Source of the DNA: Patescibacteria group bacterium | GTDB taxonomy: Bacteria > Patescibacteriota > Minisyncoccia > RBG-13-40-8-A | Assembly (NCBI GenBank): GCA_043807255.1 | Contig: JAZDGD010000001.1 | Coordinates: 8,464 to 72,463 of the forward strand | Length of the DNA: 64,000 bases | Direction: 5' to 3' | Shown: piece after piece, positions 2,566 to 51,429 of the stretch | Layout of the letters: every line of letters starts with the position of its first letter | How positions within the stretch are numbered: position 1 is the stretch's first letter | Notes under the pieces: model-generated | The model's input: only the letters and a program-made list of their open reading frames with translations | What the model was told of the DNA's origin: nothing | The model's database searches: none | Program-made: the position numbers and the translations under genes

Positions 2566-4311
2566 ATGACCAATCAGGAGATTTCGCATATTTTAAATAA
2601 TATCGCCGAATATTTAGCGATGGATGATGTCCCATTTAAGCCGCGTGCTTACGAAAAAGCAGCAGTTAGTATTGAAGCACTCGACGAGAGTGTTTTTGAC
2701 ATTTATAAAACTGGCGGGATAAAAGCATTAGAAAATATATCATCTATTGGCAAAGGAATTGCCTTCAAGATTGAAGAATATATTAAAACAGGGAAAATAA
2801 AAGAATATGAACAATTAAAAAAGAAGGTGCCAGTTGATTTAGAAGCATTAACGGCAATTGAGGGGATTGGACCAAAAAGTATTTTAAAATTATATAAAGA
2901 ATTGGGGGTTAAAAATGTTAAAGACCTAGAAATGGCTGCTAAAAATAAAAAAATTAGAAATATTGAAGGATTCGGGCAAAAAACCGAAGACAATATTTTA
3001 ATGTCGATTCAATTTTTGAAAAATTCTGATGGCAGATTTCCTCTGGGATATGTTTTGAATGATTTAAGAAACATTGAGCAAAAAATTAAAAGAATAAAGG
3101 GAGTTAAAAAAACATTATTAAGCGGGTCTGTGCGTAGAATGAAAGAAGATATTGGTGATGCCGATATTCTAGTAGCAGTTGATAACAAAGAAGACACAAA
3201 AGACATTGTAAGCTATTTTATTAATATGCCGGAAGTAGCGCATATTTTTAGCCACGGAGACACCAAGTCATCCGTAAAATTAAAAAATCACATTAATTTT
3301 GATATGCGAGTTGTTGAGGAAAAGAGTTTCGGCGCTGCTTCGCAGTATTTTACGGGAAGCAAGGATCATAATATTGCACTAAGGAAAATTGCGATTAAAA
3401 AAGGATTAAAATTGAATGAATACGGGATTTTTCGAATTAAAAGTCAAAAGTCAAAAATTAAAAGTTTGGCGGAAACAGAAGAAGGGGTTTATAAAAAATT
3501 AGGACTACAATGGATTCCGCCAGAGATGAGAGAAAATAAAGGCGAGATCGAACTTGCTCAGAAGAATAAACTTCCCAATTTAATAAAATACAACGACCTT
3601 AAAGGCGATTTGCAGATGCATTCAACCTGGTCAGATGGATTAAATACAATTGAAGAGATGGCAAATAAAGCAATGGATATGGGATTAGAATATATTGCAA
3701 TTACTGACCATGTTCGGGGCATGTTTGGCAATAAATTAAACGAAAAAGGATTAAGTAAGCAATGGGAAGAAATAGATGAGATAAATCAAAAATTAAAAGT
3801 CAAAAATCAAAAATTCAAAATACTGAAGGGGTGTGAGGTTGATATAATGAATGATGGGAGTTTGTATATGAAAGATGAAATTTTAGAGAAATTTGATATT
3901 GTTGGCGCAGCAATTCATTCTAATTTTAAAATGTCTAAAGAAAAAATGACCGAAAGAATTGTTCGGGCGATGAGAAATCCTAATGTTGATATAATTTTTC
4001 ATCCCACTGGTCGGCTTATTGGTGCGAGAGCTCCGTTTGAAGTTGACATTGAAAAAATTATTCAAGTCGCCAAGGAGACAAATACGATTCTGGAAATCAA
4101 TTCTTATTTTAATCGTTTAGATTTAAAAGACGAATATGTGCGTATGGCAAAAAACGCAGGAGTAAAAATTTCCATTGATTCTGATGCACACAGTATTTCG
4201 CATTTTCAATATTTAGAATTAGGCATCGCCCAAGCCCGCAGGGGGTGGTTAGAAAGAAAAGACGTCATCAACGTTTGGCCACTAGATAAAATGTTAAAAA
4301 TGCTAAAATGA
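2566..4311 (+). CDS. polX: DNA polymerase X family protein with a C-terminal PHP phosphoesterase domain
   Basis: N-terminal HhH/Pol-beta-like region, nucleotidyltransferase motif (GSVRRMKEDIGDADIL) and a PHP histidine motif (MHSTWSDG...ITDH). It carries two in-frame copies of the 30-nt heptamer repeat. Confidence 0.8.
   Translation: MTNQEISHILNNIAEYLAMDDVPFKPRAYEKAAVSIEALDESVFDIYKTGGIKALENISSIGKGIAFKIEEYIKTGKIKEYEQLKKKVPVDLEALTAIEGIGPKSILKLYKELGVKNVKDLEMAAKNKKIRNIEGFGQKTEDNILMSIQFLKNSDGRFPLGYVLNDLRNIEQKIKRIKGVKKTLLSGSVRRMKEDIGDADILVAVDNKEDTKDIVSYFINMPEVAHIFSHGDTKSSVKLKNHINFDMRVVEEKSFGAASQYFTGSKDHNIALRKIAIKKGLKLNEYGIFRIKSQKSKIKSLAETEEGVYKKLGLQWIPPEMRENKGEIELAQKNKLPNLIKYNDLKGDLQMHSTWSDGLNTIEEMANKAMDMGLEYIAITDHVRGMFGNKLNEKGLSKQWEEIDEINQKLKVKNQKFKILKGCEVDIMNDGSLYMKDEILEKFDIVGAAIHSNFKMSKEKMTERIVRAMRNPNVDIIFHPTGRLIGARAPFEVDIEKIIQVAKETNTILEINSYFNRLDLKDEYVRMAKNAGVKISIDSDAHSISHFQYLELGIAQARRGWLERKDVINVWPLDKMLKMLK
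3436..3465 (+). repeat. 30-nt AAAAGTC heptamer mini-repeat (attaaaagtcaaaagtcaaaaattaaaagt), in frame in polX
   Basis: Identical 30-mer at 30385-30414 (leuS). Variants at 3792-3821 (polX), about 14945-14974 (ileS) and 35959-35990 (pth, minus strand); degenerate relatives at 10361-10380 (argS) and 48742-48760 (nrdG). Confidence 0.8.
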
Positions 4312-4730
4312 ATAAATTTTTGAAATTTTGGTTGCCAGTTGTGGTTTGGGCGGGGTTGATATTTGTTTTATCCTCAATCCCAAGTCTAAAAACAAATCTG
4401 GAACAAGATTTTTTGTTAAGAAAGATTGCACATATTGTTGAATTCGGCATTTTAACCTTCTTATTATATAGGGCTATATCCGCCCAGGGCCTGCCTGCCG
4501 GCAAGGCAGGCGGATCGCCCTGCAGGGCAATCATCTATTCTTTTATTTTTGCATTATTTTACGCCTTTTCCGACGAACTACATCAATATTATGTTCCGGG
4601 TAGGCATTGTAGCTTAAAAGATGTTGGAATTGATAGTGTCGGTATTCTTATTTTTTCATTGGCGTGTTATTATAAAAATAGAAAGGCGCCGTTCCCCGTA
4701 GGGAACAGCGCCAGTAGGTCAGGCTATTAG
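4308..4730 (+). CDS. VanZ-like family membrane protein
   Basis: VanZ-like motif SDELHQYYVPGRHCSLKDVGIDSVG. A GC-rich palindromic insert lies in frame at 4489-4511. Confidence 0.5.
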   Translation: MNKFLKFWLPVVVWAGLIFVLSSIPSLKTNLEQDFLLRKIAHIVEFGILTFLLYRAISAQGLPAGKAGGSPCRAIIYSFIFALFYAFSDELHQYYVPGRHCSLKDVGIDSVGILIFSLACYYKNRKAPFPVGNSASRSGY

Positions 4731-7233: not shown

Positions 7234-7264
7234 TCAATAAAAAGGTCGGTAATTATAAAATAGA

Positions 7265-7342
7265 AGCAGATAATCGCAGATTAAGACGCAGATAAACGCA
7301 GATCAGCGTAAATCGGCGCTTAGATCCGCGTAGATCTGCATA
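7265..7342 (+). repeat. Intergenic mini-array of degenerate CGCAGAT(A)A(A) decamers
   Basis: agcagataatcgcagattaagacgcagataaacgcagatcagcgtaaatcggcgcttagatccgcgtagatctgc. Related tandem units occur in frame in tatD (26225-26275) and leuS (29299-29338). Confidence 0.7.
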
Positions 7343-10161: not shown

Positions 10162-11919
10162 ATGACAATTCGTGAGGAAATCAAATCCGCCGTCGCTAAA
10201 GCTGTGGCGGACAAGGGAGATTCAATCGAATTTACGGTTGAAGTGCCGGAAAATGCAAATTATGGCGATTATGCCACTAATGTGGCTTTGATTTTAGTCC
10301 CTCGATATGACTCGGGACAATCTCCAATGGAGATTGCGAATGAAATTATTTCAAAATTAGAAATTCAAAATTCAAAATTCATCGACAAAGTCGAGGTGGT
10401 CAATGGTTTCATAAATTTTTATCTAAAACCAGAATTTATTCAAGGCCAAGTTAAAGAAATCCTAAAGCAAAACAAAAAATACGGTAGCAATAAAATTGGT
10501 AAGGGCAAAACAGTTATAATAGATTATTCTTCACCGAATATTGCGAAAAAAATGCATGTTGGGCACTTAAGATCGACGATTATCGGCGCTGCGATTTACA
10601 ACGTTTATAAATTTTTAGGATATAAAGTTGTCGGTGATAATCATTTGGGAGACTGGGGAAAACAATTTGGAATAATGCTTGCCGGAATAAGTAAGTATAA
10701 ATATGATCCCAAAAAAATGAACACCCAGGACATGCTAGATGTTTATGTTAAATTTAATAATGAAATGAAGAATGATTTAACCCTTGATGAGTGGGCTAGA
10801 AATGAATTTAAAGATCTTGAAAATAATTTTAGAGAATATAATAATCACTCCAGAAAGGAAAAATATAATACAGAAAATATCAAAACATGGGAAACGTTAA
10901 GAGAAAAGTCGCTCGAAGAGTTTGAGAAAATCTACAATATGTTGGGCATTAAATTTGACGAGTATAACGGAGAAAGTCATTATGAGTCCGTTTTTGGTGA
11001 GGTGGTTAAAGATTGCGAGACGTTAAATTTGGACGGAAAAGATGAAAAATATTTTTTAAGCAATGGGGCCTATTTAATTAATTTAGACGAATTTGGTCTC
11101 GATCCACTTTTAATTAAAAAATCTGATGGGGCGACACTTTATGCCACTAGAGAGCTCGCGACAATAAAGGAAAGGGCCAAAGATAGTCCAGAAAAAATAA
11201 TTTATGTTGTTGGCAATGAACAATCTTTGCATTTCCAGCAATCATTTCAAGCAGCAGAATTATTAAATTATATTTCTAAAGACAAACTCATTCATGTTAA
11301 GTTTGGCCTTATCTTAGATGAGAATCATAAAAAATTAGCCACTAGAACCGGAAGGTTTATCGGTGCGGAAGACCTAATTAACCAAATAATTGAATTGGCA
11401 GAAAAAATCATAAAAGAAAAAAATCCTTCTTTGTCGGAGAAGGAAAGAAAAAATGTTGCAAAAGCCGTAGGTATTGGTGCATTGAAGTATAACGATTTAT
11501 ATCAAAATCGACAAAGTGATATTGTTTTTAATTGGAATAGAATGTTAAGTTTTGATGGGAATTCTGCTCCATATATACTATATACATATGTGAGATTGCA
11601 AAGCATTTTGGGAAAGACTAAATTTGCGGGAAGTTTTAAGTCCGAATTTCTAAAAGAAAACGAAGAATTAAACGTTATAAAAGAACTAATTAAATTCCCT
11701 GATGTGGTCGAAGATTCAGCGGAAAGCTTTCAAATGAATAATTTAGCTAATTATCTTTACGACTTGGCGAGTTTGGCTAATAATTTTTATGAGAAATTTA
11801 ATATATTAAAGGTAGATCATGATACTCGGGGAGCCAGATTGGCCCTGATTAAAGCCGTTACCATTGTCTTAAAAAACGGGTTAAATCTACTAGGTATAAA
11901 TACCATCGAAAAGATGTAA
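10162..11919 (+). CDS. argS: Arginine--tRNA ligase
   Basis: Class I HIGH motif (SSPNIAKKMHVGHLRS) and ArgRS anticodon-binding C-terminus ending in M. Confidence 0.9.
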   Translation: MTIREEIKSAVAKAVADKGDSIEFTVEVPENANYGDYATNVALILVPRYDSGQSPMEIANEIISKLEIQNSKFIDKVEVVNGFINFYLKPEFIQGQVKEILKQNKKYGSNKIGKGKTVIIDYSSPNIAKKMHVGHLRSTIIGAAIYNVYKFLGYKVVGDNHLGDWGKQFGIMLAGISKYKYDPKKMNTQDMLDVYVKFNNEMKNDLTLDEWARNEFKDLENNFREYNNHSRKEKYNTENIKTWETLREKSLEEFEKIYNMLGIKFDEYNGESHYESVFGEVVKDCETLNLDGKDEKYFLSNGAYLINLDEFGLDPLLIKKSDGATLYATRELATIKERAKDSPEKIIYVVGNEQSLHFQQSFQAAELLNYISKDKLIHVKFGLILDENHKKLATRTGRFIGAEDLINQIIELAEKIIKEKNPSLSEKERKNVAKAVGIGALKYNDLYQNRQSDIVFNWNRMLSFDGNSAPYILYTYVRLQSILGKTKFAGSFKSEFLKENEELNVIKELIKFPDVVEDSAESFQMNNLANYLYDLASLANNFYEKFNILKVDHDTRGARLALIKAVTIVLKNGLNLLGINTIEKM

Positions 11920-12493: not shown

Positions 12494-15280
12494 ATGGAAA
12501 AAATTTCAGACATAGAAAAGAAAATATTAGAATTTTGGAAAGAGAACAAAATTTTTAAAAAATCCCTCGAGAAGAAAGGTAAAAATTTTGTATTTTACGA
12601 AGGACCGCCAACTGCCAATGGCAAGCCGGGAATTCATCATGTTGAGGCTCGAGCATTCAAGGATGCAATTCCACGATATAAAACCATGCGGGGCTATCAC
12701 GTAGAAAGGAAGGCTGGCTGGGATACTCAAGGGTTACCAGTTGAACTGGAAGTAGAAAAAGAATTGGGCTTTAAAAACAAGAAAGATATTGAAAATTATG
12801 GCATAGCGAAATTCAATCAAAAATGCAAAGAAAGTGTCTGGAAATATAAAGAAGAATGGGAAAAAATGACAGAAAGAATGGGTTATTGGGTGGACATGGA
12901 AGATCCATATATAACTTATGACAATAATTACATAGAATCTCTTTGGTGGATTATTAAACAAATTTACGATAAAGGATTGGTTTATAAGGGATATAAGGTT
13001 GTTCCACAATGTCCGCGTTGTGGTACGGCTTTATCGTCTCACGAAGTAGCACAAGGATATAAAAATGTGCAGGAAGAATCGGTATATATAAAATTTAAAG
13101 TAAAAGGAAAAGATAACGAATATATTTTGGCCTGGACAACAACTCCATGGACTTTGCCGGGTAATATTGCTTTGGCTATTGGAGAAAAAATCGAATATGT
13201 AAAAATAAAACAAAATAATGAATTTTATTATTTGGCCAAAAATTTATTGGACAAGATCAATGGCGGATATGAAACGATTGAAGAATTAAAAGGCACAAAG
13301 ATGATTGGATGGGAATATGAACCGTTATTTAATGGCGTAATTAAGGGCAATGAAAAAAATACCGAGAATGCATTTAAAATTTACCCCGCAAATTTTGTTT
13401 CCACAGAAGATGGGACAGGCATTGTACATACCGCGGTTATGTATGGGGTAGAAGATTATGAATTGGGCGAAAAAATTGGACTGCCTAAAGTACACACAGT
13501 TAATCTTGATGGAACTTTTAATGAATTAGTTCCGCAATGGAAAGGAAAGTTTGTTAAAGACGCAGAAAAAGAAATTATCGAGGACTTAAAACAAAGAAAT
13601 GTTTTATATAAAACCGAGGCCCATAATCATGATTATCCATTTTGTTGGCGATGTGATTCCCCATTGATTTATTACGCGCGAGATTCTTGGTATTTTGAAA
13701 TGAGCAAATTAAGAGAAAAATTAATTAAAAATAACGAGAAAATTAATTGGATTCCTGAACATGTCAAAGAGGGAAGGTTCGGAGAGTGGTTGAAAGAAGT
13801 AAAAGATTGGGCAATTTCCCGGGAAAGATATTGGGGCACGCCAATACCAATATGGATTTGTGAAAAATGCAACGAAATGAAGGTTATTGGATCGTGCCAA
13901 GAATTGGGTGTTGATGAAAAATTTGATTTACATAAACCATTTATTGACGAAATAAAATTTAAATGTCCTTCGACAAGCTCAGGGCAGGTTTGTGGTGGAG
14001 AAATGAAACGAACTCCAGAAGTAATGGACTCTTGGTTCGATTCAGGAGCGATGCCTTTCGCCCAACATCATTATCCATTCGAAAATAAAAATTTAATTGA
14101 TAAGGGGGAACAATTTCCAGCAGACTTTATTTCCGAAGCCGTTGATCAAACCCGTGGTTGGTTTTATACATTGTTGGCGGTATCTACAATGTTAGGCAAA
14201 GAATCTCCCTATAAAAATGTTATTTGCCTTGGTCATATTTTAGATAAAGATGGACAAAAAATGTCTAAGCACATCGGCAATGTTGTCGATCCGATATTAA
14301 TGATTGAAAAATATGGGGCAGACGTTGTTCGTTGGTATATATATAACGTTAATCAGCCGGGTGAGCCGAAAAGATTTAGTGAAGAAGGATTAAAAGAATC
14401 AGGAAGCATGTTTAATACTTTATTGAATGTGCTGAGTTTTTATAAAATATTTGCCGAAGGAACCGAAATGAAAGACTTAAACGAAAACAAAGACCCAGTA
14501 AACGTTTTGGACAAATGGATCGGTTCCAAATTATCATTATTAATAAAAAACGTTGAGGAACATTTAAATGATTATGATATTTTTAGTGCCACAAGAAAAA
14601 TTCAGAGTTTTATTGAAGATCTTTCTGTTTGGTACGTGCGAAGGTCGCGCGATAGATTTAAAAATGGAGGGGAAGATAAATTGTACGCATTAAAAACCTT
14701 GCGTTATGTTTTGTTCCGCTTATCAGAATTAATGGCTCCATTTACTCCATTTATGGCAGAGCATATATATAAGGAAGTGGGCGGAGGCAGGGAAAGCGTG
14801 CATTTGGAGGATTGGCCGGAAGTAGACAAGAAATTAATCGACGAAAAGCTGGAAGAGCAAATGCAACAGGTGCGAGAAATTTGTAGCATGGGTTTGCAAA
14901 AAAGAGCAGAAGCCGGAATTAAAGTAAGACAACCACTGGCCAAATTAAAAATTAAAAGTCAAAAGTTAAAAGTTGAGCTACTTGATTTAATACGGGACGA
15001 AATTAACGTAAAAGAGGTGGTCATGGACGACAATCTAAAAGAAGGGGTGGTACTTGATACCACTATCACCGAAGAACTCAAGGCAGAGGGCGCTGTGAGG
15101 GATTTTGTGCGCACTATCCAATCAAAACGCAAAGAAATGGGGTTAACTCCGAAAGACAAGATTCGAGTGTATTATTCTGACAACAAGGAAATCGTCGAAA
15201 AGTATGCCGATCAAATCAAAAAGCAAGTAATTGCAGAAGAAATTGTCTTCGGCGATGAATTTAAAATAGAGAAGACATGA
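12494..15280 (+). CDS. ileS: Isoleucine--tRNA ligase
   Basis: HIGH (PPTANGKPGIHHV) and KMSKS (KMSKHIGN) motifs, editing domain and zinc-binding C-terminus. An in-frame heptamer-repeat variant lies at about 14945-14974. Confidence 0.95.
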   Translation: MEKISDIEKKILEFWKENKIFKKSLEKKGKNFVFYEGPPTANGKPGIHHVEARAFKDAIPRYKTMRGYHVERKAGWDTQGLPVELEVEKELGFKNKKDIENYGIAKFNQKCKESVWKYKEEWEKMTERMGYWVDMEDPYITYDNNYIESLWWIIKQIYDKGLVYKGYKVVPQCPRCGTALSSHEVAQGYKNVQEESVYIKFKVKGKDNEYILAWTTTPWTLPGNIALAIGEKIEYVKIKQNNEFYYLAKNLLDKINGGYETIEELKGTKMIGWEYEPLFNGVIKGNEKNTENAFKIYPANFVSTEDGTGIVHTAVMYGVEDYELGEKIGLPKVHTVNLDGTFNELVPQWKGKFVKDAEKEIIEDLKQRNVLYKTEAHNHDYPFCWRCDSPLIYYARDSWYFEMSKLREKLIKNNEKINWIPEHVKEGRFGEWLKEVKDWAISRERYWGTPIPIWICEKCNEMKVIGSCQELGVDEKFDLHKPFIDEIKFKCPSTSSGQVCGGEMKRTPEVMDSWFDSGAMPFAQHHYPFENKNLIDKGEQFPADFISEAVDQTRGWFYTLLAVSTMLGKESPYKNVICLGHILDKDGQKMSKHIGNVVDPILMIEKYGADVVRWYIYNVNQPGEPKRFSEEGLKESGSMFNTLLNVLSFYKIFAEGTEMKDLNENKDPVNVLDKWIGSKLSLLIKNVEEHLNDYDIFSATRKIQSFIEDLSVWYVRRSRDRFKNGGEDKLYALKTLRYVLFRLSELMAPFTPFMAEHIYKEVGGGRESVHLEDWPEVDKKLIDEKLEEQMQQVREICSMGLQKRAEAGIKVRQPLAKLKIKSQKLKVELLDLIRDEINVKEVVMDDNLKEGVVLDTTITEELKAEGAVRDFVRTIQSKRKEMGLTPKDKIRVYYSDNKEIVEKYADQIKKQVIAEEIVFGDEFKIEKT

Positions 15281-18943: not shown

Positions 18944-18957
18944 GTATTCATTAATAT

Positions 18958-18993
18958 GTACGGAGAACTGTTCTCCGTACATCTCCGTACATA
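18958..18993. repeat. REP family 1 palindrome TGTACGGAGAACTGTTCTCCGTACA (plus an extra half-site)
   Basis: Inverted repeat read directly; further copies at 19212-19236 (degenerate, inside the CDS) and 19720-19744. Confidence 0.8.
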
Positions 18994-19024: not shown

Positions 19025-19714
19025 ATGGCAATTAAAAGACCACAATTAATTAATAATGAAATTTACCACATCATTATTAGGGGCGTAGGTGACACGAAAA
19101 TTTTTAAAGAGCAAAACGATTATTATCGTATGATTTTTTCTCTTTACGAATTTAATAATTATAGACCAGTAGAAATTAGGACTCGACGACAAAAAAGAAA
19201 AACAGAGAAGATGTACGGAGAACTGTTCTCCGGCACATTCTCTGACGACAGGGACTTGCTGGTAGAGATTTTAGCATTTTGTTTTATGCCGAACCATGTA
19301 CATTTATTGTTGAGGCAAATTAAAAACAACGGCATTACAAAATTTATGAGGAAGCTTGGGGCTGGATATGGAGGTTATTTTAATAGAAGACACGATCGTA
19401 AAGGACATTTATTCCAAAACAGATTTCAAGCAGTTCACATAAACACAGATGATCAATTGCAAACGGTTTTTGTTTACATTCATTCTAATCCAATATCATT
19501 GGTCGAGCCAAAATGGAAAGAGGTGGGCGTAAAAAATACAAATAAAGCGATTAAATTTATAGAAAATTATAAATGGTCTAGTTATCTGGACTATATAGAT
19601 AAAAAGAATTTTCCATCCATAACTAATAGAAAATTTTTAGGAGACGTAATTGGTAAAAACGAAAAGTGTAAAAAGTTTGTTAATGATTGGATAAAGTATA
19701 AAAATGAATTATAA
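19025..19714 (+). mobile_element. REP-associated tyrosine transposase (RAYT / IS200-like TnpA), copy 1
   Basis: HxH motif (FCFMPNHVHLLL) and a catalytic Tyr region, flanked on both sides by REP family 1 palindromes. Confidence 0.75.
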
Positions 19715-19719
19715 ATAGA

Positions 19720-19744
19720 TGTACGGAGAACAGTTCTCCGTACA
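19720..19744. repeat. REP family 1 palindrome, 3' flanking copy
   Basis: TGTACGGAGAACAGTTCTCCGTACA read directly from the sequence. Confidence 0.8.
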
Positions 19745-19755
19745 CCTATATTAAT

Positions 19756-25916: not shown

Positions 25917-26744
25917 ATGTTAATCGATACACACGCGCATCTAAATTTTAAAGATTTTGATGATGATCGAGAAGAAATTATCAAACAATGTCAGAAGAAC
26001 GACATCGTCGTTCTTAATATTGGCGTAAATTATACTACCTCCAAAGAGGTGATTGAGCTTGCGGAAAAATATAATAATTGTTGGGCGACAGTCGCTGTTC
26101 ATCCACACGATATTGCCGAATCGCGCGACGGGGTTGGTTTTGATTATAATAAATTTTTGGAGCTTGCTAAACATTCTCGCGTTGTAGGAATTGGTGAGTG
26201 TGGTTTGGATTATCAACTCATAGAGGCAGATAAACGCAGACTTGGAACGCAGATCGACGCAGAAAAAGCGCAAAAACAACAACAAGAAATTTTTATACAA
26301 CATTTAAAATTAGCACAAGAAGTAGATAAGCCAATAATCATTCATTCCCGTAGATTGTTCCCAGAAATTTTAGAAATCATTAAAACATTTCAAGCATCAA
26401 GCATCAAGCATTTAAATGGTGTCCTGCATTGCTATATGGGTCGCTGGTCTTACGCTGAAGAATATTTGAAATTAGGGTTTTATTTGAGTTTTACGGGACT
26501 GATAACTTATGCGCGAGATTATGATAAAGTTATTAAAAATTGCCCATTGGATAGAATTTTAATTGAAACCGATTCGCCATACTTAACGCCGGATCCTTTG
26601 CGAAAAAAGGACGAAATTGTCAGAAATACACCGCTGAATGTTGAATTAGTCGCTCGAAAAATCGCCGAAATAAAAGGAATTAGTTTTGAAGAAGTTGCAG
26701 AACAAACAACCAAAAACGCACAAAAGTTATTTAAAATACAATAA
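25917..26744 (+). CDS. tatD: TatD family Mg-dependent DNase/hydrolase
   Basis: IDTHAHL, GEcGLDY and HSR motifs. It carries an in-frame CGCAGATAAA repeat insert at 26225-26275. Confidence 0.85.
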   Translation: MLIDTHAHLNFKDFDDDREEIIKQCQKNDIVVLNIGVNYTTSKEVIELAEKYNNCWATVAVHPHDIAESRDGVGFDYNKFLELAKHSRVVGIGECGLDYQLIEADKRRLGTQIDAEKAQKQQQEIFIQHLKLAQEVDKPIIIHSRRLFPEILEIIKTFQASSIKHLNGVLHCYMGRWSYAEEYLKLGFYLSFTGLITYARDYDKVIKNCPLDRILIETDSPYLTPDPLRKKDEIVRNTPLNVELVARKIAEIKGISFEEVAEQTTKNAQKLFKIQ

Positions 26745-27096: not shown

Positions 27097-28143
27097 TTGA
27101 AAAAATATACCGTTCCGAGGATATTAGGAGAATCAGTTCTTTTTATGTTAATCAGAAGGTACGGTAATTGTAAGACGCAAGAGACAATTACGGCAGAGGT
27201 ATTATCAAAATTAATTTCTTGTCCGCCCTACACGACCAGCAGAAGCCTTATTAATGGTAAGGTTCGCGAATTAAGTATTCCAAGCAGAGAACTTAAAATG
27301 GTTTTAAGGGTAATTCTAAAAAATATTTTTGATTATTTTGGTGTGTCGGGCTTTGCTCACGGCGGAGTGTGTGAAAAATCTATCGTTACGAATGCCGAAA
27401 TACATCTTGGGGCAAAGTCTATCTTCAAAATTGATTTTAGACATTATTATCCATCGATTACTCAAAAAATGGTCGTGGATTGCCTCTCTCGATTGTTAGA
27501 AAAAAACGTTGGATGTATTGCTACTTTAGAAAATTGCGGCATGTCTTCTTTTCGAGAGGCAAGAGGATTGGCGGGAATTATTGGTCGTTTAGCTACACAC
27601 AAAGGAGTGTTGCCTCAAGGGGCACCAACTAGTTCGTGTTTACAAAACCTGATTTTTAGAGATCTAGATGAAAAGATCTCCAAAGTAGCCGAAAAATATT
27701 TTCTTCGTTACACTCGCTTTGTGGATGACCTAACTTTTTCTAGTGCCTGGCCAGAGATATCACAGTCAGCGTTAAATGAAATAATGGCACTGATTAAAAA
27801 CGAAGTTGGTGAATTTCTTAAATTGAATCGTAAGAAAATTCACTACAGAAAAGGGAAAAGAGAGGTACACAAAATCACAGGCGTAACAATTGTTCCTGGA
27901 CTAGACAATATTTCAAAAACATCTTTAACGCGAAGGCAGATAGAGCGATACAGAAGCGTATTGCATTTAGCTAGTTTGGGTCGCGTAAGCACGGATCAGG
28001 CATGGGGTGTAATCGCGTTTGTAAGAATGGTTTGTGGGGAAGGAATTCCCAATAGACTGAGAAAACCGTTTACACAATTTTTAACAAATTGCTATCCTGA
28101 TTCGTGGGACAGGAGGATTGAACCCTATAAGAATTGGTTGTAG
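27097..28143 (+). CDS. Retron-type reverse transcriptase (TTG start)
   Basis: RT motifs are collinear with retron RTs: NAxxH (VTNAEIHLG), KIDFRHYYPSI, LPQGAPTSSCLQNLIF, RYTRFVDDLTFSS (FVDD in the YADD position) and a VTG-like KITGVTIV. Confidence 0.8.
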   Translation: MKKYTVPRILGESVLFMLIRRYGNCKTQETITAEVLSKLISCPPYTTSRSLINGKVRELSIPSRELKMVLRVILKNIFDYFGVSGFAHGGVCEKSIVTNAEIHLGAKSIFKIDFRHYYPSITQKMVVDCLSRLLEKNVGCIATLENCGMSSFREARGLAGIIGRLATHKGVLPQGAPTSSCLQNLIFRDLDEKISKVAEKYFLRYTRFVDDLTFSSAWPEISQSALNEIMALIKNEVGEFLKLNRKKIHYRKGKREVHKITGVTIVPGLDNISKTSLTRRQIERYRSVLHLASLGRVSTDQAWGVIAFVRMVCGEGIPNRLRKPFTQFLTNCYPDSWDRRIEPYKNWL

Positions 28144-28215: not shown

Positions 28216-30651
28216 ATGGATTATAATCCTCAAGAAATTGAAAAAAAGTGGCAGGAAAAATGGGAAAAACTTGGTCTATATAAAGCCGAAGATTTTTCTA
28301 AAAAGCTAAAACAATATATTTTGGTTGAATTTCCATATCCCTCCGGAGATGGTCTTCATGTTGGTCACGCTCGCAGCTATTCTGCGCTTGATGCTATGGC
28401 ACGCAAAAAGAGAATGCAGGGGTATAATGTTTTATTTCCAATTGGCTATGATGCGTTTGGACTTCCTACTGAAAATTATGCAATTAAGACTGGTATTCAC
28501 CCAATCGAGGTAACTAAAAAAAATACAGCGATTTTTAGAGAACAGTTGAAAAGTTTAGGATTATCGTTTGACTGGTCTCGAGAGATAAATACTACCGATC
28601 CCAAATATTATAAATGGACACAGTGGATATTTTTACAATTTTTTAAAAAAGGATTAGCTTATCAATCAGAAATGCCAATAAACTGGTGTCCGAAATGTAA
28701 AACAGGGTTAGCCAACGAAGAAGTTGTAAATGGAAAGTGTGAACGTTGTGGCACGCAAACCGAAAAAAGAAATAAAAAACAATGGTTATTAAAAATTACT
28801 GATTATGCGGATCGATTGATTGATGACTTAAAATTGGTTAATTATCCAGACAGAATTAAAAACCAACAGATTAATTGGATTGGAAGATCCGGTGGAACAA
28901 ATATAAAATTTAAAATCGGAGACAACGAATTAGAAGCATTTACAACAAGAATAGACACAATTTTTGGTGTAACCGCACTTGTATTAGCTCCCGAACATGA
29001 ACTAATTAATCAGCTGAAAAATAAAATCGAAAACCTAAACGAAGTCCAGGAATATATTAATCAGGCAAAGAAAAAATCGGAAATTGAGCGCATGGATTTT
29101 GCGAAAGAAAAAACGGGCGTTGAATTGAAAGGAGTTTATGCAATCAATCCATTAAATAATGAAAAAATTGCAATTTGGATCGGAGATTATGTAATTGCCA
29201 CTTATGGCGGGGGAGCAGTAATGTTTGTGCCCGCACACGATGAACGTGATTATGAGTTTGCAACGCGTCACAACATTCCCATTCGGGAAGTGGTGACGCC
29301 GCAGATAAGCGCAGATTTAGACGCAGATAAACGCAGAGATGGGGCGTTTACGAGCTATGGTTATTTAATTAATTCAGGAGAATTTAATGGATTGGACTCG
29401 GAAAAAGCAATAAAAGAAATTACAAAATTATTGGAAAAGAAAAAATTGGGTAAAAAAACGATTAATTATCATTTGCGAGATTGGGTGTTTACGCGTCAAC
29501 ATTATTGGGGTGAGCCAATACCAATTATTCATTGCGAAAAGTGTGGGGTAGTGCCAGTTGATGAAAAGGACCTACCAGTAGAACTCCCTTATGTTGAAAA
29601 ATATGAACCAACCGACAGCGGAGAATCACCATTATCAGTAATTGATGAATGGGTAAATGTAAAATGTCCTAAATGCGGAGGAAAGGCAAAAAGAGAAACT
29701 GACACAATGCCAAATTGGGCTGGTTCTAATTGGTATTTTCTTAGATATTGCGATCCGAAAAATGATAAAGAATTTGCAGATATGAAGAAATTAAAATACT
29801 GGATGCCCGTAGACCTATATAACGGTGGGATGGAACATGTAACCCTTCATTTGTTATATTCAAGATTTGTTTATAAATTTTTATATGATATTGGCGTTGT
29901 GCCAACTCTTGAGCCATATCAAAGACGATGTGCCCATGGCATGGTCTTGGGGTCTGATGGCAAGAAAATGAGTAAGTCTTTGGGCAATGTTATCAATCCG
30001 GACGAAGTCGTAAAAAAATATGGCGCAGACACGGTTCGTTTGTATGAAATGTTTATGGGACCGTATGAAGATGAAATTTCTTGGAGCACGGAAAGCCTAG
30101 AAGGTTGTGCAAGGTTCTTAAGAAGAATTTGGAATCTATTTAGTAATGATGAAAAGTTTGCCAAAGAAACCTCAAAAGATTTAATTCAAAAATTGCATTA
30201 CACGATAAAAAAGGTTAGTGACGATCTAGACAATATGAAATTTAACACCGCAATTTCAAGCATGATGGAATTTGTAAACGCATGGAGTGGAGAGAGGCAA
30301 GTTTTATCGAAAGCTGATGCAGAAAATTTCCTGAAAATTCTATCGCCGTTTGCACCACATATCACTGAAGAATTATATTCTAAAATTAAAAGTCAAAAGT
30401 CAAAAATTAAAAGTATTTTTGACGAACAATGGCCAGAATATGATGAAGAGTTAATCAAAAAAGACAAAATCGATTTGGTGATTCAAATCAATGGCAAAGT
30501 TAGAGATAAAATCGAAGTAAAAGCAGACATTTCCGAAAAAGAGGCAAAAGAACTAGTTTTATCGAACGAAAAAATAAAAACCTGGCTAAATAACCAAGAA
30601 CCGAAGAAAATAATTTTTGTAAAAAATAAATTAATTAACATCGTAATTTAA
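28216..30651 (+). CDS. leuS: Leucine--tRNA ligase
   Basis: HIGH-type motif (PYPSGDGLHVGHA), CP1 editing domain and KMSKS (KMSKSLGN). In-frame repeat inserts lie at 29299-29338 and 30385-30414. Confidence 0.95.
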   Translation: MDYNPQEIEKKWQEKWEKLGLYKAEDFSKKLKQYILVEFPYPSGDGLHVGHARSYSALDAMARKKRMQGYNVLFPIGYDAFGLPTENYAIKTGIHPIEVTKKNTAIFREQLKSLGLSFDWSREINTTDPKYYKWTQWIFLQFFKKGLAYQSEMPINWCPKCKTGLANEEVVNGKCERCGTQTEKRNKKQWLLKITDYADRLIDDLKLVNYPDRIKNQQINWIGRSGGTNIKFKIGDNELEAFTTRIDTIFGVTALVLAPEHELINQLKNKIENLNEVQEYINQAKKKSEIERMDFAKEKTGVELKGVYAINPLNNEKIAIWIGDYVIATYGGGAVMFVPAHDERDYEFATRHNIPIREVVTPQISADLDADKRRDGAFTSYGYLINSGEFNGLDSEKAIKEITKLLEKKKLGKKTINYHLRDWVFTRQHYWGEPIPIIHCEKCGVVPVDEKDLPVELPYVEKYEPTDSGESPLSVIDEWVNVKCPKCGGKAKRETDTMPNWAGSNWYFLRYCDPKNDKEFADMKKLKYWMPVDLYNGGMEHVTLHLLYSRFVYKFLYDIGVVPTLEPYQRRCAHGMVLGSDGKKMSKSLGNVINPDEVVKKYGADTVRLYEMFMGPYEDEISWSTESLEGCARFLRRIWNLFSNDEKFAKETSKDLIQKLHYTIKKVSDDLDNMKFNTAISSMMEFVNAWSGERQVLSKADAENFLKILSPFAPHITEELYSKIKSQKSKIKSIFDEQWPEYDEELIKKDKIDLVIQINGKVRDKIEVKADISEKEAKELVLSNEKIKTWLNNQEPKKIIFVKNKLINIVI

Positions 30652-30777
30652 AGCTCGAATTATTTATATAAAAGACACGTGTTGATTTTTTTAATAAAAA
30701 AATCACACTCTATCTCGGTCCGATGGCGATCGGACCTGCGATGCGGACTTTTATATAAACAATTCTCGCCAAGATTT
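30652..30777 (+). promoter_or_regulatory. Conserved roughly 125-nt leader element, copy A (upstream of purN)
   Basis: Near-identical to 39270-39404 apart from a central hairpin whose two arms are both replaced while staying complementary (ggtccgatggcgatcggacc versus agccgactgctgtcggct). It also contains an AT hairpin (gtgttgatttttttaataaaaaaatcacac). Confidence 0.5.
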
Positions 30778-31383
30778 ATGAAAAATATAGCGGTACTGGT
30801 GTCTGGTAATGGGACGAATTTACAAGCGATAATTGATAATGTAAAAGACGGGAAAATAAACGGCAAAATTGTTGCTGTGATTTCGAATAAAGCCGATGCT
30901 TATGGATTAGAAAGAGCAAGGCAAGCAGGAATTCCGGAATATTTTATTGATCACAAAGGAATTACGCGAGAAGAGCATGAACAAAAAATAATTGATATTT
31001 TAGAAAAAAATAATGTTGATTTAGTTGTTTTGGCCGGATATATGCGCGTTGTAACTTCGTTGTTTGTGAATAAATATAAACACAGATTAATTAATATCCA
31101 TCCCGCACTTTTGCCTGCATTTCCTGGAACCGACGGCTATGGTGATACATTTAATTATGGTTGTAAGGTTGGCGGATGCACAGTACATTTTGTTGACGAA
31201 GGAGTTGATACTGGTCCGATAATTATTCAAAGAGTTAACGAAATCAAAGAAGACGATACGTTAGAAAGTTTTAAACAGCGTGGATTAGAAATCGAACATC
31301 AAGCACTCCCCGAGGCAGTAAAACTTTTTTGTGAGGACAGATTAAAGATCGAGGGAAGAAAAGTGAAAATCTTACGAGGCTAA
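30778..31383 (+). CDS. purN: Phosphoribosylglycinamide formyltransferase (formyl transferase family)
   Basis: NIAVLVSGNGTNLQAI, the INIHPALLPAFPG motif and a catalytic HxxD region. Confidence 0.75.
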   Translation: MKNIAVLVSGNGTNLQAIIDNVKDGKINGKIVAVISNKADAYGLERARQAGIPEYFIDHKGITREEHEQKIIDILEKNNVDLVVLAGYMRVVTSLFVNKYKHRLINIHPALLPAFPGTDGYGDTFNYGCKVGGCTVHFVDEGVDTGPIIIQRVNEIKEDDTLESFKQRGLEIEHQALPEAVKLFCEDRLKIEGRKVKILRG

Positions 31384-31990: not shown

Positions 31991-32028
31991 GCCTCGTAAG
32001 ATATTCGGTCCTTCAAGGACCGAATATT
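31976..32028. repeat. Palindrome family 3 copy fused to a REP family 2 copy (AATATTCGGTCCTTCAAGGACCGAATATT)
   Basis: Both palindromes read directly from the sequence, overlapping the udg stop codon and extending just beyond it. Confidence 0.8.
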
Positions 32029-35852: not shown

Positions 35853-36374
35853 CTAAGAAAGCGGTATGGAAATCATTCCAACTGCTTTTTTAATTATCTC
35901 AGGTAGCTTTTCTTCTTCGGTCTTTGAAAAGTTCTTTAAAACAAAATCCGTCGTATTAACTTTTAATTTTTGACTTTGGACTTTTAATTCGGGCTGGATT
36001 CCTATACGAATTCGGGTGAAATTCTGGGTACCTAATTCATTGATAATCGATTGTACTCCCTTGTGTCCCGCGGATGAAGAATCCTTACTTACGCGAACAT
36101 CCCCAAACAACAAATCGATATCATCGTGAATGACAATTAAATTAGATACAGGAATTTTTTCATAATCAAGATATTCTTTTACTGCTCTGCCGGAGTCATT
36201 CATAAAATTATCGGGCTTCAAAAATATGATATTTTTATCCCGAGCGTTTATTCCGAGCAAAGTCGAGGAAGAGTCGAGGGACTCTAATCCATCAATAACT
36301 CTAAATCCGACATTGTGTCGGGTTTTTTCGTATTTTTTTCCAGGGTTGCCAAGTCCCGCAATTAAAGTTTTCAT
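35853..36374 (-). CDS. pth: Peptidyl-tRNA hydrolase
   Basis: LIAGLGNPGKKYEKTRHNVGF, the canonical Pth N-terminus. A heptamer-repeat copy lies in frame at 35959-35990. Confidence 0.9.
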   Translation of the reverse strand: MKTLIAGLGNPGKKYEKTRHNVGFRVIDGLESLDSSSTLLGINARDKNIIFLKPDNFMNDSGRAVKEYLDYEKIPVSNLIVIHDDIDLLFGDVRVSKDSSSAGHKGVQSIINELGTQNFTRIRIGIQPELKVQSQKLKVNTTDFVLKNFSKTEEEKLPEIIKKAVGMISIPLS

Positions 36375-38696: not shown

Positions 38697-39266
38697 ATGA
38701 TGGAAGAGAATAAACCAAAAATCTCTGGTTTTAAGTACGGGTTAGATTTCGTTTGGGAAATCTTAAAAATTGTTGTAATCTCTTTGGCAATCATTGTGCC
38801 GATTAGATATTTTTTAATTCAACCGTTTTTTGTTAAGGGTGCGTCAATGGAGCCGAATTATTTAGATGGTGATTATTTAATTATTGATGAAATTAGTTAT
38901 AGGTTTGAAACGCCAAAAAGAGGAGAGGTAATTATTTTTAGATATCCTTTGGACCCAACACAGTTTTTTATAAAAAGAGTTATTGGCTTGCCAGGAGAAA
39001 CCGTTAAGGTTGAAAATGGGAAGGTAATCATTGAAGAGCAGTCTGGTAATTCATTTATTTTAGATGAATCAAAATATTTAGATGGAGTTAATACCGCCGG
39101 CAACATTGAAACAACGCTTGAGAATAACGAATATTTTGTTTTAGGGGATAATCGTAATGCGAGTTCGGATTCGCGAAGATGGGGCGAGGTTGATAAGAAA
39201 CTTATTATTGGTCGTGCTTGGTTACGTGCTTGGCCATTTAATCGTTTAGGGGCATTGTTAAAATAA
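38697..39266 (+). CDS. lepB: Signal peptidase I
   Basis: GASMEPN (catalytic Ser), KRVIGLPGE and GDNRNASSDSR boxes. Confidence 0.85.
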   Translation: MMEENKPKISGFKYGLDFVWEILKIVVISLAIIVPIRYFLIQPFFVKGASMEPNYLDGDYLIIDEISYRFETPKRGEVIIFRYPLDPTQFFIKRVIGLPGETVKVENGKVIIEEQSGNSFILDESKYLDGVNTAGNIETTLENNEYFVLGDNRNASSDSRRWGEVDKKLIIGRAWLRAWPFNRLGALLK

Positions 39267-39269
39267 TTA

Positions 39270-39404
39270 ATTGCTCGAATTTTTTATATAAAAGACACGT
39301 GTTGATTTTTTTAATAAAAAAATCACACTCTATCTCAGCCGACTGCTGTCGGCTTCCGATGCGGACTTTTATACAAATAATTCTCGCTAGGAAATAAAAG
39401 AATT
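39270..39404 (+). promoter_or_regulatory. Conserved roughly 125-nt leader element, copy B (upstream of hisS)
   Basis: See copy A. Outside the central hairpin it is near-identical to copy A. Confidence 0.5.
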
Positions 39405-40736
39405 ATGAAACAAGAAAAAAAGAAAAGAGGAAGGCCTTCAAAGCCAAGAAAACCAAAAATTTCTAAAATCAAAATTCAAGCACCAAAAGGGGTGCATGAT
39501 ATTTTGCCAGAAGAACAAAAGTACTGGGAAAAACTTTATGCCGTGATTGCACAAGTTTTGCCAGGATATGGATTTAAAAGAATTGATGTTCCAGTTTTTG
39601 AGGATGCGCGTCTTTATTTGCGCGGCACTGGGGCAAGCACAGACATTGTGCAAAAAGAGATGTACACTTTTAAAAAGGGCGATGCGGAGCTTTTCGCATT
39701 GCGTCCAGAATTTACTCCGGGGATTGTTCGTGCTTATATTGAACACGGAATGAAAAATTTACCACAACCAGTAAAACTTTATACAACTGGACAATTATTC
39801 AGACATGATAAACCACAGGCAGGCAGATTTAGACAATTTAATCAAATTGACTGGGAGATTATTGGTGACCAAGGAGCAGTAAGCGATGTGCAGGTTATTC
39901 AAACATTTACAAGCATTTTAAAGAAACTTAATCTAAAGAAATATACATTATATATTAATAGTATTGGTTGTTCGATTTGTGTTCCTAAATACAAAAAAGC
40001 GTTAATTGGTTATTATCGACAACGCTTAAATAATGTTTGCCCGGATTGTCACCGCAGGTTCAAAGAAAACCCATTAAGATTATTGGATTGTAAAAATGAG
40101 AAATGTCAGAAAACATCTCTAAAGTCACCACAGATATTAGATTTTCTTTGTGACGAATGCCATAAACATTTTAAAGAAGTTTTAGAATTTCTTGATGAAT
40201 TAGAAATTCCTTATCAATTAAATCCTCAATTGGTCAGAGGCCTTGATTATTATACAAAAACAGTTTTCGAATTTTATGAAGATACCAAAGAGACCTCATC
40301 CCAGGGAGCATTGATGGGTGGGGGCAGATATGACAATCTTGTAGAAATGTTTAAAGGCAGATCAACGCCAGGAGTTGGTGCGGCAGCGGGAATGGAACGA
40401 CTTATAAATGTAATAAAAAAACAGGACGTTAAATTGATAGAAAAAGAAAAATCAAAAGTGTTTCTTATTCAACTGGGAGACATGGGCAGGAAGAAGTGTT
40501 TAAAATTATTCGAAGAGTTTCATTCCAAGGGCATAAAAATTGGCGAAGCATTTTCAAAAGAGAGCATTAAGTCACAGCTAAAGGTCGCAGACAAAGAGGG
40601 CGCGGAATGGGCATTGATTATGGGTCAGAGAGAAGCACTCGAAGACACCATAATTATCAAAGATATGAAAACAGGCGCTCAAGAAACAATAAGATTAGAT
40701 AGAATAATTAACGAGGTTAAAAAAAGAATAGGGTAA
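39405..40736 (+). CDS. hisS: Histidine--tRNA ligase
   Basis: Class II motifs (RPEFTPG, GGGRYDNL). It has a Lys/Arg-rich N-terminal extension and an internal Cys4 insertion. Confidence 0.9.
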   Translation: MKQEKKKRGRPSKPRKPKISKIKIQAPKGVHDILPEEQKYWEKLYAVIAQVLPGYGFKRIDVPVFEDARLYLRGTGASTDIVQKEMYTFKKGDAELFALRPEFTPGIVRAYIEHGMKNLPQPVKLYTTGQLFRHDKPQAGRFRQFNQIDWEIIGDQGAVSDVQVIQTFTSILKKLNLKKYTLYINSIGCSICVPKYKKALIGYYRQRLNNVCPDCHRRFKENPLRLLDCKNEKCQKTSLKSPQILDFLCDECHKHFKEVLEFLDELEIPYQLNPQLVRGLDYYTKTVFEFYEDTKETSSQGALMGGGRYDNLVEMFKGRSTPGVGAAAGMERLINVIKKQDVKLIEKEKSKVFLIQLGDMGRKKCLKLFEEFHSKGIKIGEAFSKESIKSQLKVADKEGAEWALIMGQREALEDTIIIKDMKTGAQETIRLDRIINEVKKRIG

Positions 40737-48309: not shown

Positions 48310-49071
48310 ATGAAGATTGGGGGTTTGCAAAAATTAACTCTCGTTGATTATCCAAACAAAATTGCAGCAACAGTATTTTTAACTGGCTGCAATTTTAAAT
48401 GTGGCTTTTGTCATAATCCTAGTCTTGTAGACGTAAAACGGAGGACAGACCTCCGTAATTACGGAGGTCTGTCCTCCGTAGAATTCTTTGATTTTTTAAA
48501 ATCAAAACAAGGATTGATTGATGGAATTTGTGTTACTGGCGGAGAACCAACCATAAATTCTAATTTAGTTGAATTCATCAAAAGAATAAAAGAATTAAAT
48601 TTTTCAATTAAACTAGATACCAACGGGAGCAACCCTGAAATGTTACAGGAGTTAATCAAACAAAAATTATTAGACTTTATTGCCATGGACATCAAGACAT
48701 CTGTGGATGTTAAAAATCCAAAATCCCATGCCTACCGGCAGGCAGGCAAAATCCAAAATTCAAAATACGACAAAGCGACGGGAACGAACGTAAATATCGA
48801 AAACATAATGAAAAGTGTAGAAATAATAAAAAATTCTAAAATAGATTATGAATTTAGAACAACGGTTGTGCCAGGCATAGTTAATAGGGAAGATATTGAA
48901 AGAATTGGTAAATGGTTAAAGGGCGTAAAAAAATTCTCCTTACAGCAATTTAGAAATCAAAAGGTTTTAAACAAAGAATTTGAAAAAGTTATACCATACC
49001 GGGACGATACATTAAAAGAGTTTAAAAAAATATTAGAAAAATATATTAAAAACGTGGAACTAAGAATTTGA
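48310..49071 (+). CDS. nrdG: Anaerobic RNR activating protein (radical SAM)
   Basis: CNFKCGFCHN radical-SAM cluster motif. It contains an in-frame perfect 41-nt palindrome. Confidence 0.85.
   Translation: MKIGGLQKLTLVDYPNKIAATVFLTGCNFKCGFCHNPSLVDVKRRTDLRNYGGLSSVEFFDFLKSKQGLIDGICVTGGEPTINSNLVEFIKRIKELNFSIKLDTNGSNPEMLQELIKQKLLDFIAMDIKTSVDVKNPKSHAYRQAGKIQNSKYDKATGTNVNIENIMKSVEIIKNSKIDYEFRTTVVPGIVNREDIERIGKWLKGVKKFSLQQFRNQKVLNKEFEKVIPYRDDTLKEFKKILEKYIKNVELRI
48439..48479. repeat. Perfect palindrome cggaggacagacctccgtaattacggaggtctgtcctccg inside the nrdG CDS
   Basis: Read directly from the sequence. It encodes RRTDLRNYGGLSS in frame. Confidence 0.85.
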
Positions 49072-50750: not shown

Positions 50751-51401
50751 ATGGCAGAAATTTATCATATTTTAAATAGGTCAATAGATAAAAAGAAAAT
50801 ATTTTTAAATGACAAAGATTATTTTAGATTTGTCCACGATTTATTTGAATTTAACGACGAAAGCCTAGCAAGTAAATATTCGGTCCTTGAAGGACCGAAT
50901 ATTAGAAAGCCAAGAAAATTGCTGGTAAATATTCATGCGTTTTGTCTGATGCCGAATCATTATCACTTATTGATAAGTGAAATAAGAGAAGGTGGGATTT
51001 CAAAATTTATGCAAAAACTTGGCGCTGGCTATGTTAGATATTTTAACGCCAGATACAAGCGCAAAGGAACCATCTTCGAGAGTCGTTATAAATCAATTTT
51101 AATCAGTAACTCTAATCATTTTCTCAATCTTCCGTATTATATTCATCTAAATCCGCTAGATCTTAAGTTCCCAGAATGGAGGGAGAGAAAAATAAAAGAT
51201 TACAACAAGGCAACAGAATATTTAGACAAGTATAGATGGTCTAGCCATATGGACTATTCAAATATTAAGAATTTTCCGTCAGTTACAGACCGAAAATTAT
51301 TATTAGATATATTTGGCGGAGAAGAGAAGTATAAACAAAGCATAAATAGATGGTTAAAAGAAATGGAAATAGGCGACATGGGGGAATTGATATTAGAATA
51401 A
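50751..51401 (+). mobile_element. REP-associated tyrosine transposase (RAYT / IS200-like TnpA), copy 2
   Basis: HxH motif (FCLMPNHYHLLI) and a Tyr region (YKRKGTIFESRY). It is about 50% identical to copy 1 and flanked by REP family 2 palindromes. Confidence 0.75.
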
Positions 51402-51429
51402 ATATTCGGTCCTCGAAGGACCGAATATT
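51401..51429. repeat. REP family 2 palindrome (AATATTCGGTCCTCGAAGGACCGAATATT)
   Basis: Read directly; it overlaps the RAYT stop codon. Confidence 0.85.

Follow-up and report, generated by a model that had tools for sequence, protein, structure and literature searches.

An imperfect heptamer array recurs in frame in conserved genes of a Patescibacteria genome

How does one short piece of DNA come to lie in frame within several unrelated, conserved enzyme genes? The question is raised by a 64,000-nt stretch of a Patescibacteria group bacterium (GCA_043807255.1, contig JAZDGD010000001.1, positions 8,464–72,463 of the forward strand; hereafter the window; G+C ~35%). The 30-mer ATTAAAAGTCAAAAGTCAAAAATTAAAAGT occurs exactly at 3436–3465 in polX and at 30385–30414 in leuS, with one mismatch on the minus strand in pth (35959–35988) and with three mismatches at a second polX site (3792–3821) and in ileS (14944–14973). 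In 100 dinucleotide-preserving shuffles of the window, the chance expectation for such matches was 0.00. An earlier reading of the sequence (the original prediction) had described these copies as a mini-element inserted in frame; a mismatch search and translation confirmed its coordinates, sequences and peptides. We find that the 30-mer is an array of heptanucleotide units whose identity between genes lies in the DNA, that homologues of several host proteins lack it, and that coding copies are filtered by frame and orientation.

One array, two reading frames

The 30-mer resolves into ~4.3 heptanucleotide units of consensus RTYAAAA, namely ATTAAAA, GTCAAAA, GTCAAAA and ATTAAAA followed by GT. 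This imperfect unit order (ATT-GTC-GTC-ATT) is the same in polX and leuS and one nucleotide off in pth, where the inverted repeat (I3) spans 34 nt with 97% identity. Tandem Repeats Finder assigned period 7 and 3.9–5.3 copies to all seven sites in the window, those in argS and nrdG included. Among tandem periods in the window, 7 dominates, with 8 tracts against 0.1 in shuffles, and it outnumbers every other period tested (4 to 15), multiples of three included. The seven sites are listed below.

3436–3465, plus strand: exact 30-mer array at polX site 1, in a thumb-domain loop; IKSQKSKIKS, frame 1
3783–3821, plus strand: heptamer array of ~5.3 units at polX site 2, in the PHP domain; NQKLKVKNQKFKI, frame 2, three mismatches from the 30-mer
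10350–10381, plus strand: (TTCAAAA)n array of another flavour in the argS N-terminal domain; SKLEIQNSKF
14942–14976, plus strand: ileS heptamer array; KLKIKSQKLKV, three mismatches from the 30-mer
30385–30414, plus strand: exact 30-mer in leuS, between the anticodon-binding and C-terminal domains; IKSQKSKIKS
35956–35990, minus strand: one-mismatch copy in pth; ELKVQSQKLKV, in a frame other than that of polX site 1 and leuS
48746–48768, plus strand: CAAAATC/CAAAATT array in an nrdG-like activase gene; GKIQNSKY, adjoining a GC-rich palindromic mini-element at 48730–48746

Pfam identified the hosts as PolX (HHH_8, DNA_pol_B_thumb and PHP), ArgRS, IleRS, LeuRS and Pth, and the nrdG-like product as a radical-SAM activase adjoining NrdD. 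The argS (10350–10381) and nrdG (48747–48766) tracts, originally counted as degenerate relatives of the 30-mer, are heptamer arrays of other flavour (AAATTCA/AAAATCC) and are related to it only by shared period and A-richness. An exception to this distant kinship is found between the nrdG tract and polX site 2, whose 3' part has 20/21 nt in common with it (family D19). Each copy had also been said to be a multiple of 3 nt, which is true merely by construction once 30 nt are chosen as the unit of comparison.

Two of the three forward frames of the 30-mer are open. Frame 1 gives IKSQKSKIKS and is used at polX site 1 and in leuS; frame 2 gives LKVKSQKLK and is used at polX site 2 and in pth, which reads LKVQSQKLKV. 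Frame 3 contains two TAA triplets spaced exactly 21 nt apart, and the reverse complement has stops in all three frames. Coding copies always have the A-rich strand as sense, because the reverse complement is closed in every frame. The 7-nt unit runs through all three codon phases per 21 nt; therefore an array of at least three units can code only if the frame used is stop-free. Since the same nucleotides are read in two frames, identity of the 30-mer is at the DNA level and not at the protein level, in agreement with the proposal of a dispersed DNA repeat tolerated only in open frames.

A metagenome scan for the canonical 29-mer of this family returned 24 loci, and across metagenomes the 29-mer is present in at least eight different genes. 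Orthologues of leuS and polX read it in frame 1, as do genes of tsaD-like and archease-like type; pth, ileS and recR read it in frame 2. No copies were found in viral contigs, and there was no sign of a phage vehicle. In another Patescibacteria genome (loci L079/L125, 6541–6616), the frame-3 TAA of an exact 30-mer is the stop codon of valS, the encoded ValRS ending in ...EEWPEN; this 30-mer pairs with an inverted array downstream in a hairpin. Independent metagenome assemblies carry the same 29-mer at the same gene sites, and an assembly artefact, against which the original prediction had cautioned, was rejected. Also rejected were a CRISPR, for which no spacers were present, and a programmed frameshift site, there being no slippery heptamer in frame.

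Filled and empty states at each site

Alignments with homologues bear out the original supposition that the element is not ancestral for pth, polX site 1, leuS and argS. Relative to homologues in the empty state, the net change in length is +21 nt in pth, +15 nt at polX site 1, +12 nt in leuS, +9 nt in argS and 0 in ileS. Ancestral codons must therefore have been overwritten, and in variable number, so that the insertion of a fixed 30-nt unit, as first envisaged, does not describe these sites. Orthologues either lack the residues or share them together with the nucleotides; residues conserved without nucleotide identity, as in an ancestral Lys-rich loop, were not found.

In pth, the short state RIGIKP-SHEIDT-FVL is present in 62/120 homologues (50–83% identity), and in the remainder this loop is occupied by inserts of heptamer, GC-rich or other type. 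The window Pth is 6 aa longer than Mycobacterium Pth structures at the array site; over the homologue alignments the gain comes to 6/7 aa. The empty site of locus L147 reads CCA ACT CAT GAA GTT AAT; the filled site has 27 nt in place of 6 nt. PolX site 1 was ancestrally RGKKQIAG. T. thermophilus PolX (3AU2) and most homologues read F-RG(K/E)K(Q/R)IAG here, and the window protein exceeds them by 5 aa, the same surplus as over the FRGKKQIAGKTEEE state that most homologues have. For polX site 2, whose length is that of most relatives, the net gain is 12 nt (4 aa) against the shortest relatives and 3AU2.

In leuS, a 13-aa spacer separates EELW from WP in 88/119 representatives, compared with 17 aa in the window (+4); the difference from T. 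thermophilus LeuRS (1H3N) is +5 aa. Many Patescibacteria-like LeuRS representatives (P0361–P0510) have 1000–1340 aa against 811 aa in the window, implying large further insertions elsewhere in the protein. The window ArgRS exceeds by 3 aa the orthologue in L153, a 626-kb contig of GCA_965231075.1, which has no array. The ileS segment is as long as in relatives, which at this site are fragments, and 3 aa shorter than in IleRS 8C8U; nothing was inserted there. Solved Pth, PolX and LeuRS structures lack the array segment.

The copies had been placed in surface-loop-like positions, and AlphaFold models of Pth and PolX, built on homologue alignments, bear this out in part. The pth array is modelled as a coil between a strand (120–127) and a helix (141–145), with predicted local distance difference test (pLDDT) values <50 at residues 133–137. 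Similarly, residues 291–300 at polX site 1 form a coil whose mean pLDDT of 55 is the lowest of the whole protein model. In contrast, polX site 2 is confidently folded as a helix end, turn and strand (pLDDT >95). Judged by these models, the loop location holds for the real insertions and not for every copy.

The same loops have been hit more than once. In a polX tree (581 aa, array sites masked), array-bearing sequences interleave with those of the ancestral RGKKQIAG form, and because an overwritten RGKKQIAG cannot be regained, the polX loop must have been hit several times. The arrays at polX site 1 have at least four right junctions (KS|LAETEE, KS|FENEKD, KS|EEE and KI|NEEKD). Syntenic relatives also carry arrays at other sites: two in topA of L145, AATTTCC arrays in leuS of L147, and GAAATTC x5 where the leuS editing domain starts in L146.

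Close relatives vary at the same locus, having arrays of other flavours or none, as is characteristic of heptameric repeats. At leuS, polX site 2 and ileS, relatives have arrays of equal length built from AAAATCC/AAAATTC, TTAAAAT or AAATTAC. For example, the L153 orthologue has a (TTAAAAT)n array at polX site 2. In ileS, L132 has the canonical 29-mer in the other frame, and L153 and L155 have AAATTAC/AAATCCA-type arrays of the same length. Orthologous arrays retain a period-7 self-identity of 0.69–0.84 (background mean 0.28, 99.9th percentile 0.69) and are at least as divergent as their genes. What separates orthologous arrays at polX site 2 is parallel change at one and the same position of the unit, a pattern suggestive of homogenisation within arrays.

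Some copies, on the other hand, are conserved to the letter. The leuS array of the window matches that of L133 with 100% identity over 34 nt, amid flanks with differences at many aligned positions; the window, L128 and L138/L145 have one and the same pth array, and the polX 29-mer is perfectly conserved in L134. This comparison is biased because the loci were found via the exact 29-mer or an identical peptide. In an unbiased set of polX proteins, close relatives vary in the ordinary way (IKSQKSKIKS, IKNKKSKIKN, VKGQKSKIKN).

How the arrays may have spread

All seven tracts in the window lie within genes. In 314 kb of related DNA, we counted 71 heptamer tracts, 54% in open reading frames (ORFs) of at least 100 codons and 46% in the 7.7% of the sequence outside them, a density per nucleotide ~11-fold higher outside such ORFs. 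Intergenic copies of the 29-mer are followed by an inverted array 15–40 nt downstream, and these inverted pairs fold better than shuffles (z −4.1 to −5.5). The hairpins may act as terminators, a role that we only infer. Rfam at its gathering threshold gave only tmRNA and two tRNAs, with no match on the elements. Additionally, (AATTAAA)n and (AGTTAAA)n arrays occur in cyanobacteria, Bacteroidota, Planctomycetota, Bacillota and others (loci L001–L120), often beside differing heptamer arrays; the scan that returned them used a highly degenerate pattern, was dominated by (AATTAAA)n arrays and yielded one informative locus, L079.

We consider it probable that the arrays form a dispersed family of short tandem heptamer arrays, copied by microhomology-primed template switching or short-patch conversion and then filtered. 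The 30-mer would be one allele of this family (unit RTYAAAA, 4–5 units), which would populate the genomes of a Patescibacteria clade. Replication slippage would create and reshape arrays; transfer between loci would be primed on short A-rich microhomology, for example AAAAGT, would proceed by template switching or by short-patch gene conversion, and would overwrite a few ancestral codons, no fixed unit being inserted. The products retained by selection would then be those of A-rich orientation, in one of the two stop-free frames, with a net change in length divisible by three, and placed where the protein tolerates them, for the most part in disordered surface loops. Between genes, arrays of either orientation would survive, often as inverted pairs folding as hairpins at gene ends. 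For the host enzymes, the arrays are probably without function.

The junctions agree with such a route. In pth, the AAAAGT(T) at the end of the array falls on ancestral GAAGTTAAT, and in leuS it falls on ancestral CATAAAAGT; in L146, a CCGAAAT array merges into ancestral GAAATCGAT. The original prediction had left the choice between a mobile repeat and a recombinational hotspot; transposon hallmarks were not seen, and a hotspot is closer to what the junctions suggest.

Several observations weigh against this account. Neither an enzyme nor a direct trace of template switching was seen, and the proposed mechanism draws on junction microhomology in a handful of filled and empty pairs. Decay of periodicity from a perfect ancestor, ~(1−p)^2, is compatible with the observed self-identity values, so the case for concerted evolution comes down to the parallel changes. 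L147 and L153, which belong to one assembly, carry AAAAGTC-, AAAATCC-, TTAAAAT- and AATTTCC-type arrays; homogenisation across the genome is therefore at most partial. The pth tree is weak (~150 aa). Finally, neutral junk does not predict perfect conservation of the 29-mer, which hints at constraint or drive.

A second kind of repeat lies nested in the arrays. In L153, whose polX is 81% identical to that of the window at the nucleotide level, polX site 1 reads AAAAGTCAA[CCCGCCTACCGGCGAGGCAGG]AAATTAAAAGT against AAAAGTCAAAAATTAAAAGT in the window, a clean 21-nt insertion within the array. L154 has the identical 21-mer CCCGCCTACCGGCGAGGCAGG at polX site 2, in another frame and within an array of different sequence, (ACAAGAT)n.

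L153 10890–10910 and L154 1384–1404: 21-nt GC-rich palindrome CCCGCCTACCGGCGAGGCAGG
Window 48730–48746 (nrdG, adjoining the heptamer array) and 4490–4510: variants of the 21-nt GC-rich palindrome

Translated in several frames, the palindrome gives PTGRQ, LPARQ and YRQAG, as in TRLPARQ, PAYRRGR, HAYRQAG and GLPAGKAG. These peptides and related GC-rich hairpin inserts recur in the hot-spot loops of pth, polX and leuS. Another 21-nt GC hairpin insert, ACCCCGACGCAAGGTCGGGGC, with a 7-bp stem and a GCAAG loop, is found at polX site 1 of L155 (~10870–10900); it encodes ETPTQGRG, and kindred peptides (KAPQERG, KTPQGRG) occur in other polX homologues.

Taken further, heptamer arrays and nested 21-nt palindromes could both be ultra-small mobile sequences without a transposase that, time and again, rewrite the same loops at the surface of essential enzymes in Patescibacteria, short-patch conversion carrying them within lineages and from one lineage to another, perhaps under the drive of natural transformation. 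Conservation of the 29-mer would then reflect drive or a function at the DNA level. We offer this extension tentatively, the odds being against it.

We think it unlikely that the family is a true miniature mobile element, comparable to MITEs (miniature transposable elements with inverted repeats) or Rickettsia palindromic elements (RPEs), in which a fixed 29–30-nt unit or an inverted-array hairpin pair is moved by an enzyme encoded elsewhere and coding copies are the survivors of random insertion. Identical copies in unrelated genes and in several genomes would be expected of such an element, as would the hairpins of the intergenic pairs and the repeated hits on the same loops; the neighbouring 21-nt palindrome family, moreover, inserts cleanly and is identical at two sites in two genomes. 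However, the coding copies are direct arrays with neither terminal inverted repeats nor palindromic structure, and they show neither target-site duplication nor constant boundaries. The net change in length is variable (0 to +21 nt) with ancestral codons overwritten, copies grade into one another in array length and unit order, and no transposase was identified in the window among the 16 ORFs scanned with Pfam.

A selected DNA or RNA signal is a still more doubtful explanation. The element could be an uptake sequence spread by biased uptake and homologous recombination in presumably competent bacteria, or a protein-binding or terminator motif under purifying selection. The uptake sequences of Pasteurellaceae and Neisseriaceae (USS and DUS, uptake signal sequence and DNA uptake sequence), for example those of Neisseria and Haemophilus, occur at ~1 per kb, with coding copies in tolerated frames, inverted pairs at gene ends and lineage 'dialects'. 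The arrays likewise code in tolerated frames, form inverted pairs at gene ends and have lineage-specific dialects; dprA lies beside pth, and the 29-mer is perfectly conserved in orthologues with visibly differing flanks. Yet 64 kb hold 3 copies with at most one mismatch and 5 with at most three, ~1 per 13–21 kb and at least 10 times sparser than USS/DUS, and the motif is a repetitive 30-mer. The element is missing at these sites from many close relatives, the loci used to gauge conservation had been picked by exact match, the flanks beside the array show no extended identity tract, and Rfam has no match.

We give equally little credence to an independent origin in situ, whereby Lys/Asn/Ile-rich proto-repeats in an AT-rich genome with weak repair expand by slippage and come to resemble each other by convergence. 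It would suit the many flavours at many sites, and heptamer-like seeds do exist at empty sites, in topA (TTAAAATTAAAAAAT, encoding LKLKN and expanded in L145) and in pth (GAAGTTAAT); heptamers are a favoured long simple-repeat unit in bacteria (PMC4692102). It leaves unexplained, however, that three unrelated genes of one genome, using two frames, agree at 30/30 and 33/34 nt in an imperfect unit order, and that at least eight different genes across metagenomes have the same 29-mer. An in situ origin is contradicted for the 30-mer family and viable for isolated arrays such as that of argS.

Selection of a Lys-rich peptide for nucleic-acid binding or solubility, with nucleotide identity following from codon bias, is highly improbable: all hosts (PolX, aminoacyl-tRNA synthetases (aaRS), Pth, TopA and RecR) act on nucleic acids, the peptides are basic and AT codon bias makes AAA, TTA and CAA near-obligatory, but selection of this kind cannot explain the element because two frames are used (one stretch of DNA yields two different peptides, depending on the gene, and the stop codon of valS), AT bias does not favour the codons GTC and AGT, and the same loops take the unrelated GC-rich inserts LRQGFGGQA and PTGRQA.

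Known repeat families and neighbouring repeats

Heptameric simple repeats are reported to be over-represented in many bacterial genomes as variable intergenic tracts of ~4 units (PMC4692102). Together with the cyanobacterial short tandemly repeated repetitive (STRR) sequences, they share with the arrays a head-to-tail 7-nt unit in ~4 imperfect units, use of both strands, inverted pairs that can form stem-loops, and variation of length and sequence between relatives (PMC4692102). Unlike these predominantly intergenic repeats, the arrays described here lie in frame in essential genes, and one imperfect array is dispersed as identical copies. The tandem repeats in ORFs of Borgs have units that are all divisible by three and are nearly all unique per genome (PMC9879509). 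Both they and the arrays are fast-evolving, A-rich tandem repeats encoding disordered Lys-rich segments (PMC9879509); in contrast to Borg repeats, the unit here has 7 nt, and different loci share the array.

RPEs are ~150-bp elements found in frame in housekeeping genes, compatible with fold and function of the host (PMC10969869), and QMITE1 of Coxiella is an in-frame MITE (PMC5896051). The arrays resemble both in lying in frame in unrelated housekeeping genes. RPEs differ in being palindromic and in encoding a conserved peptide in one frame, whereas here a direct array of 30 nt is read in two frames and has variable boundaries. Our results on this uncultured bacterium show that tiny repeats remodel core proteins in Patescibacteria much as larger palindromic elements do in Rickettsia.

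Elhai et al. (2008, Genome Res 18:1484) reportedly inferred the mobility of the small dispersed repeats (SDR) of Nostocaceae from filled and empty orthologous sites. Like SDR, the element is very small (<30 nt), dispersed and without an encoded enzyme, and is associated with tandem heptameric repeats and hairpin-forming contexts. Identical dispersed copies of <30 nt with filled and empty orthologous sites were found here as well, most cleanly for the 21-nt GC-rich palindrome, whose clean insertion within heptamer arrays makes it the closer SDR analogue. The phylum and the sequences are different, and the insertions here are mostly in protein-coding genes. SDR of 21–27 nt in Nostocaceae are cited in PMC5861425, which reports no SDR-like repeat outside this family among the genomes examined there. 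In-frame heptamer arrays in Patescibacteria were not found described in our literature search.

Arrays of this kind would make proteins vary in length in bacteria with the smallest and most streamlined genomes. The genes affected (those for aaRS, Pth, PolX, TopA and RecR) are usually treated as slowly evolving markers, and the inserts can distort marker alignments and phylogenies of Patescibacteria. They also provide a natural map of insertion-tolerant loops. Filled and empty sites, together with the 21-nt palindromes nested in arrays, offer a tractable system for asking how tiny sequences without an enzyme move, a question dating from the cyanobacterial SDR.

Other repeats are present in the window. 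A decamer-based repeat, GCAGATAAAC/GCAGA, occurs at 7261–7307, 26221–26245 and 29301–29342, that is, between genes, in tatD and in the leuS editing domain. Its leuS copy encodes DADKRR in a hypervariable stretch, and a related RIKTRINAD is found in another LeuRS loop insert (P0447). The perfect palindrome ATGTACGGAGAACTGTTCTCCGTACAT (48457–48485, 18956–18984, 19211–19239 and 19719–19747) marks gene ends, and one diverged copy lies in frame within the nrdG-like gene (LRNYGGLSSVE). A second perfect palindrome family, ATATTCGGTCCTTSAAGGACCGAATAT, is intergenic (32001–32028, 50703–50731, 50875–50903 and 51401–51428) and is probably a terminator or an element of the REP (repetitive extragenic palindromic) type.

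Directly upstream of leuS is an ORF (27097–28143) with a reverse-transcriptase domain (RVT_1, E 9e-13), and an RVT_1 gene adjoins leuS in L145 and L146 too. Downstream of leuS, an intergenic segment of 73 nt (30644–30716) recurs with 95% identity at 39264–39336, downstream of ORF 38697–39266. This segment, without a match in Rfam, may be a duplicated promoter, leader or small RNA; beside it lie further repeated stretches at 30739–30788 and 39357–39406.

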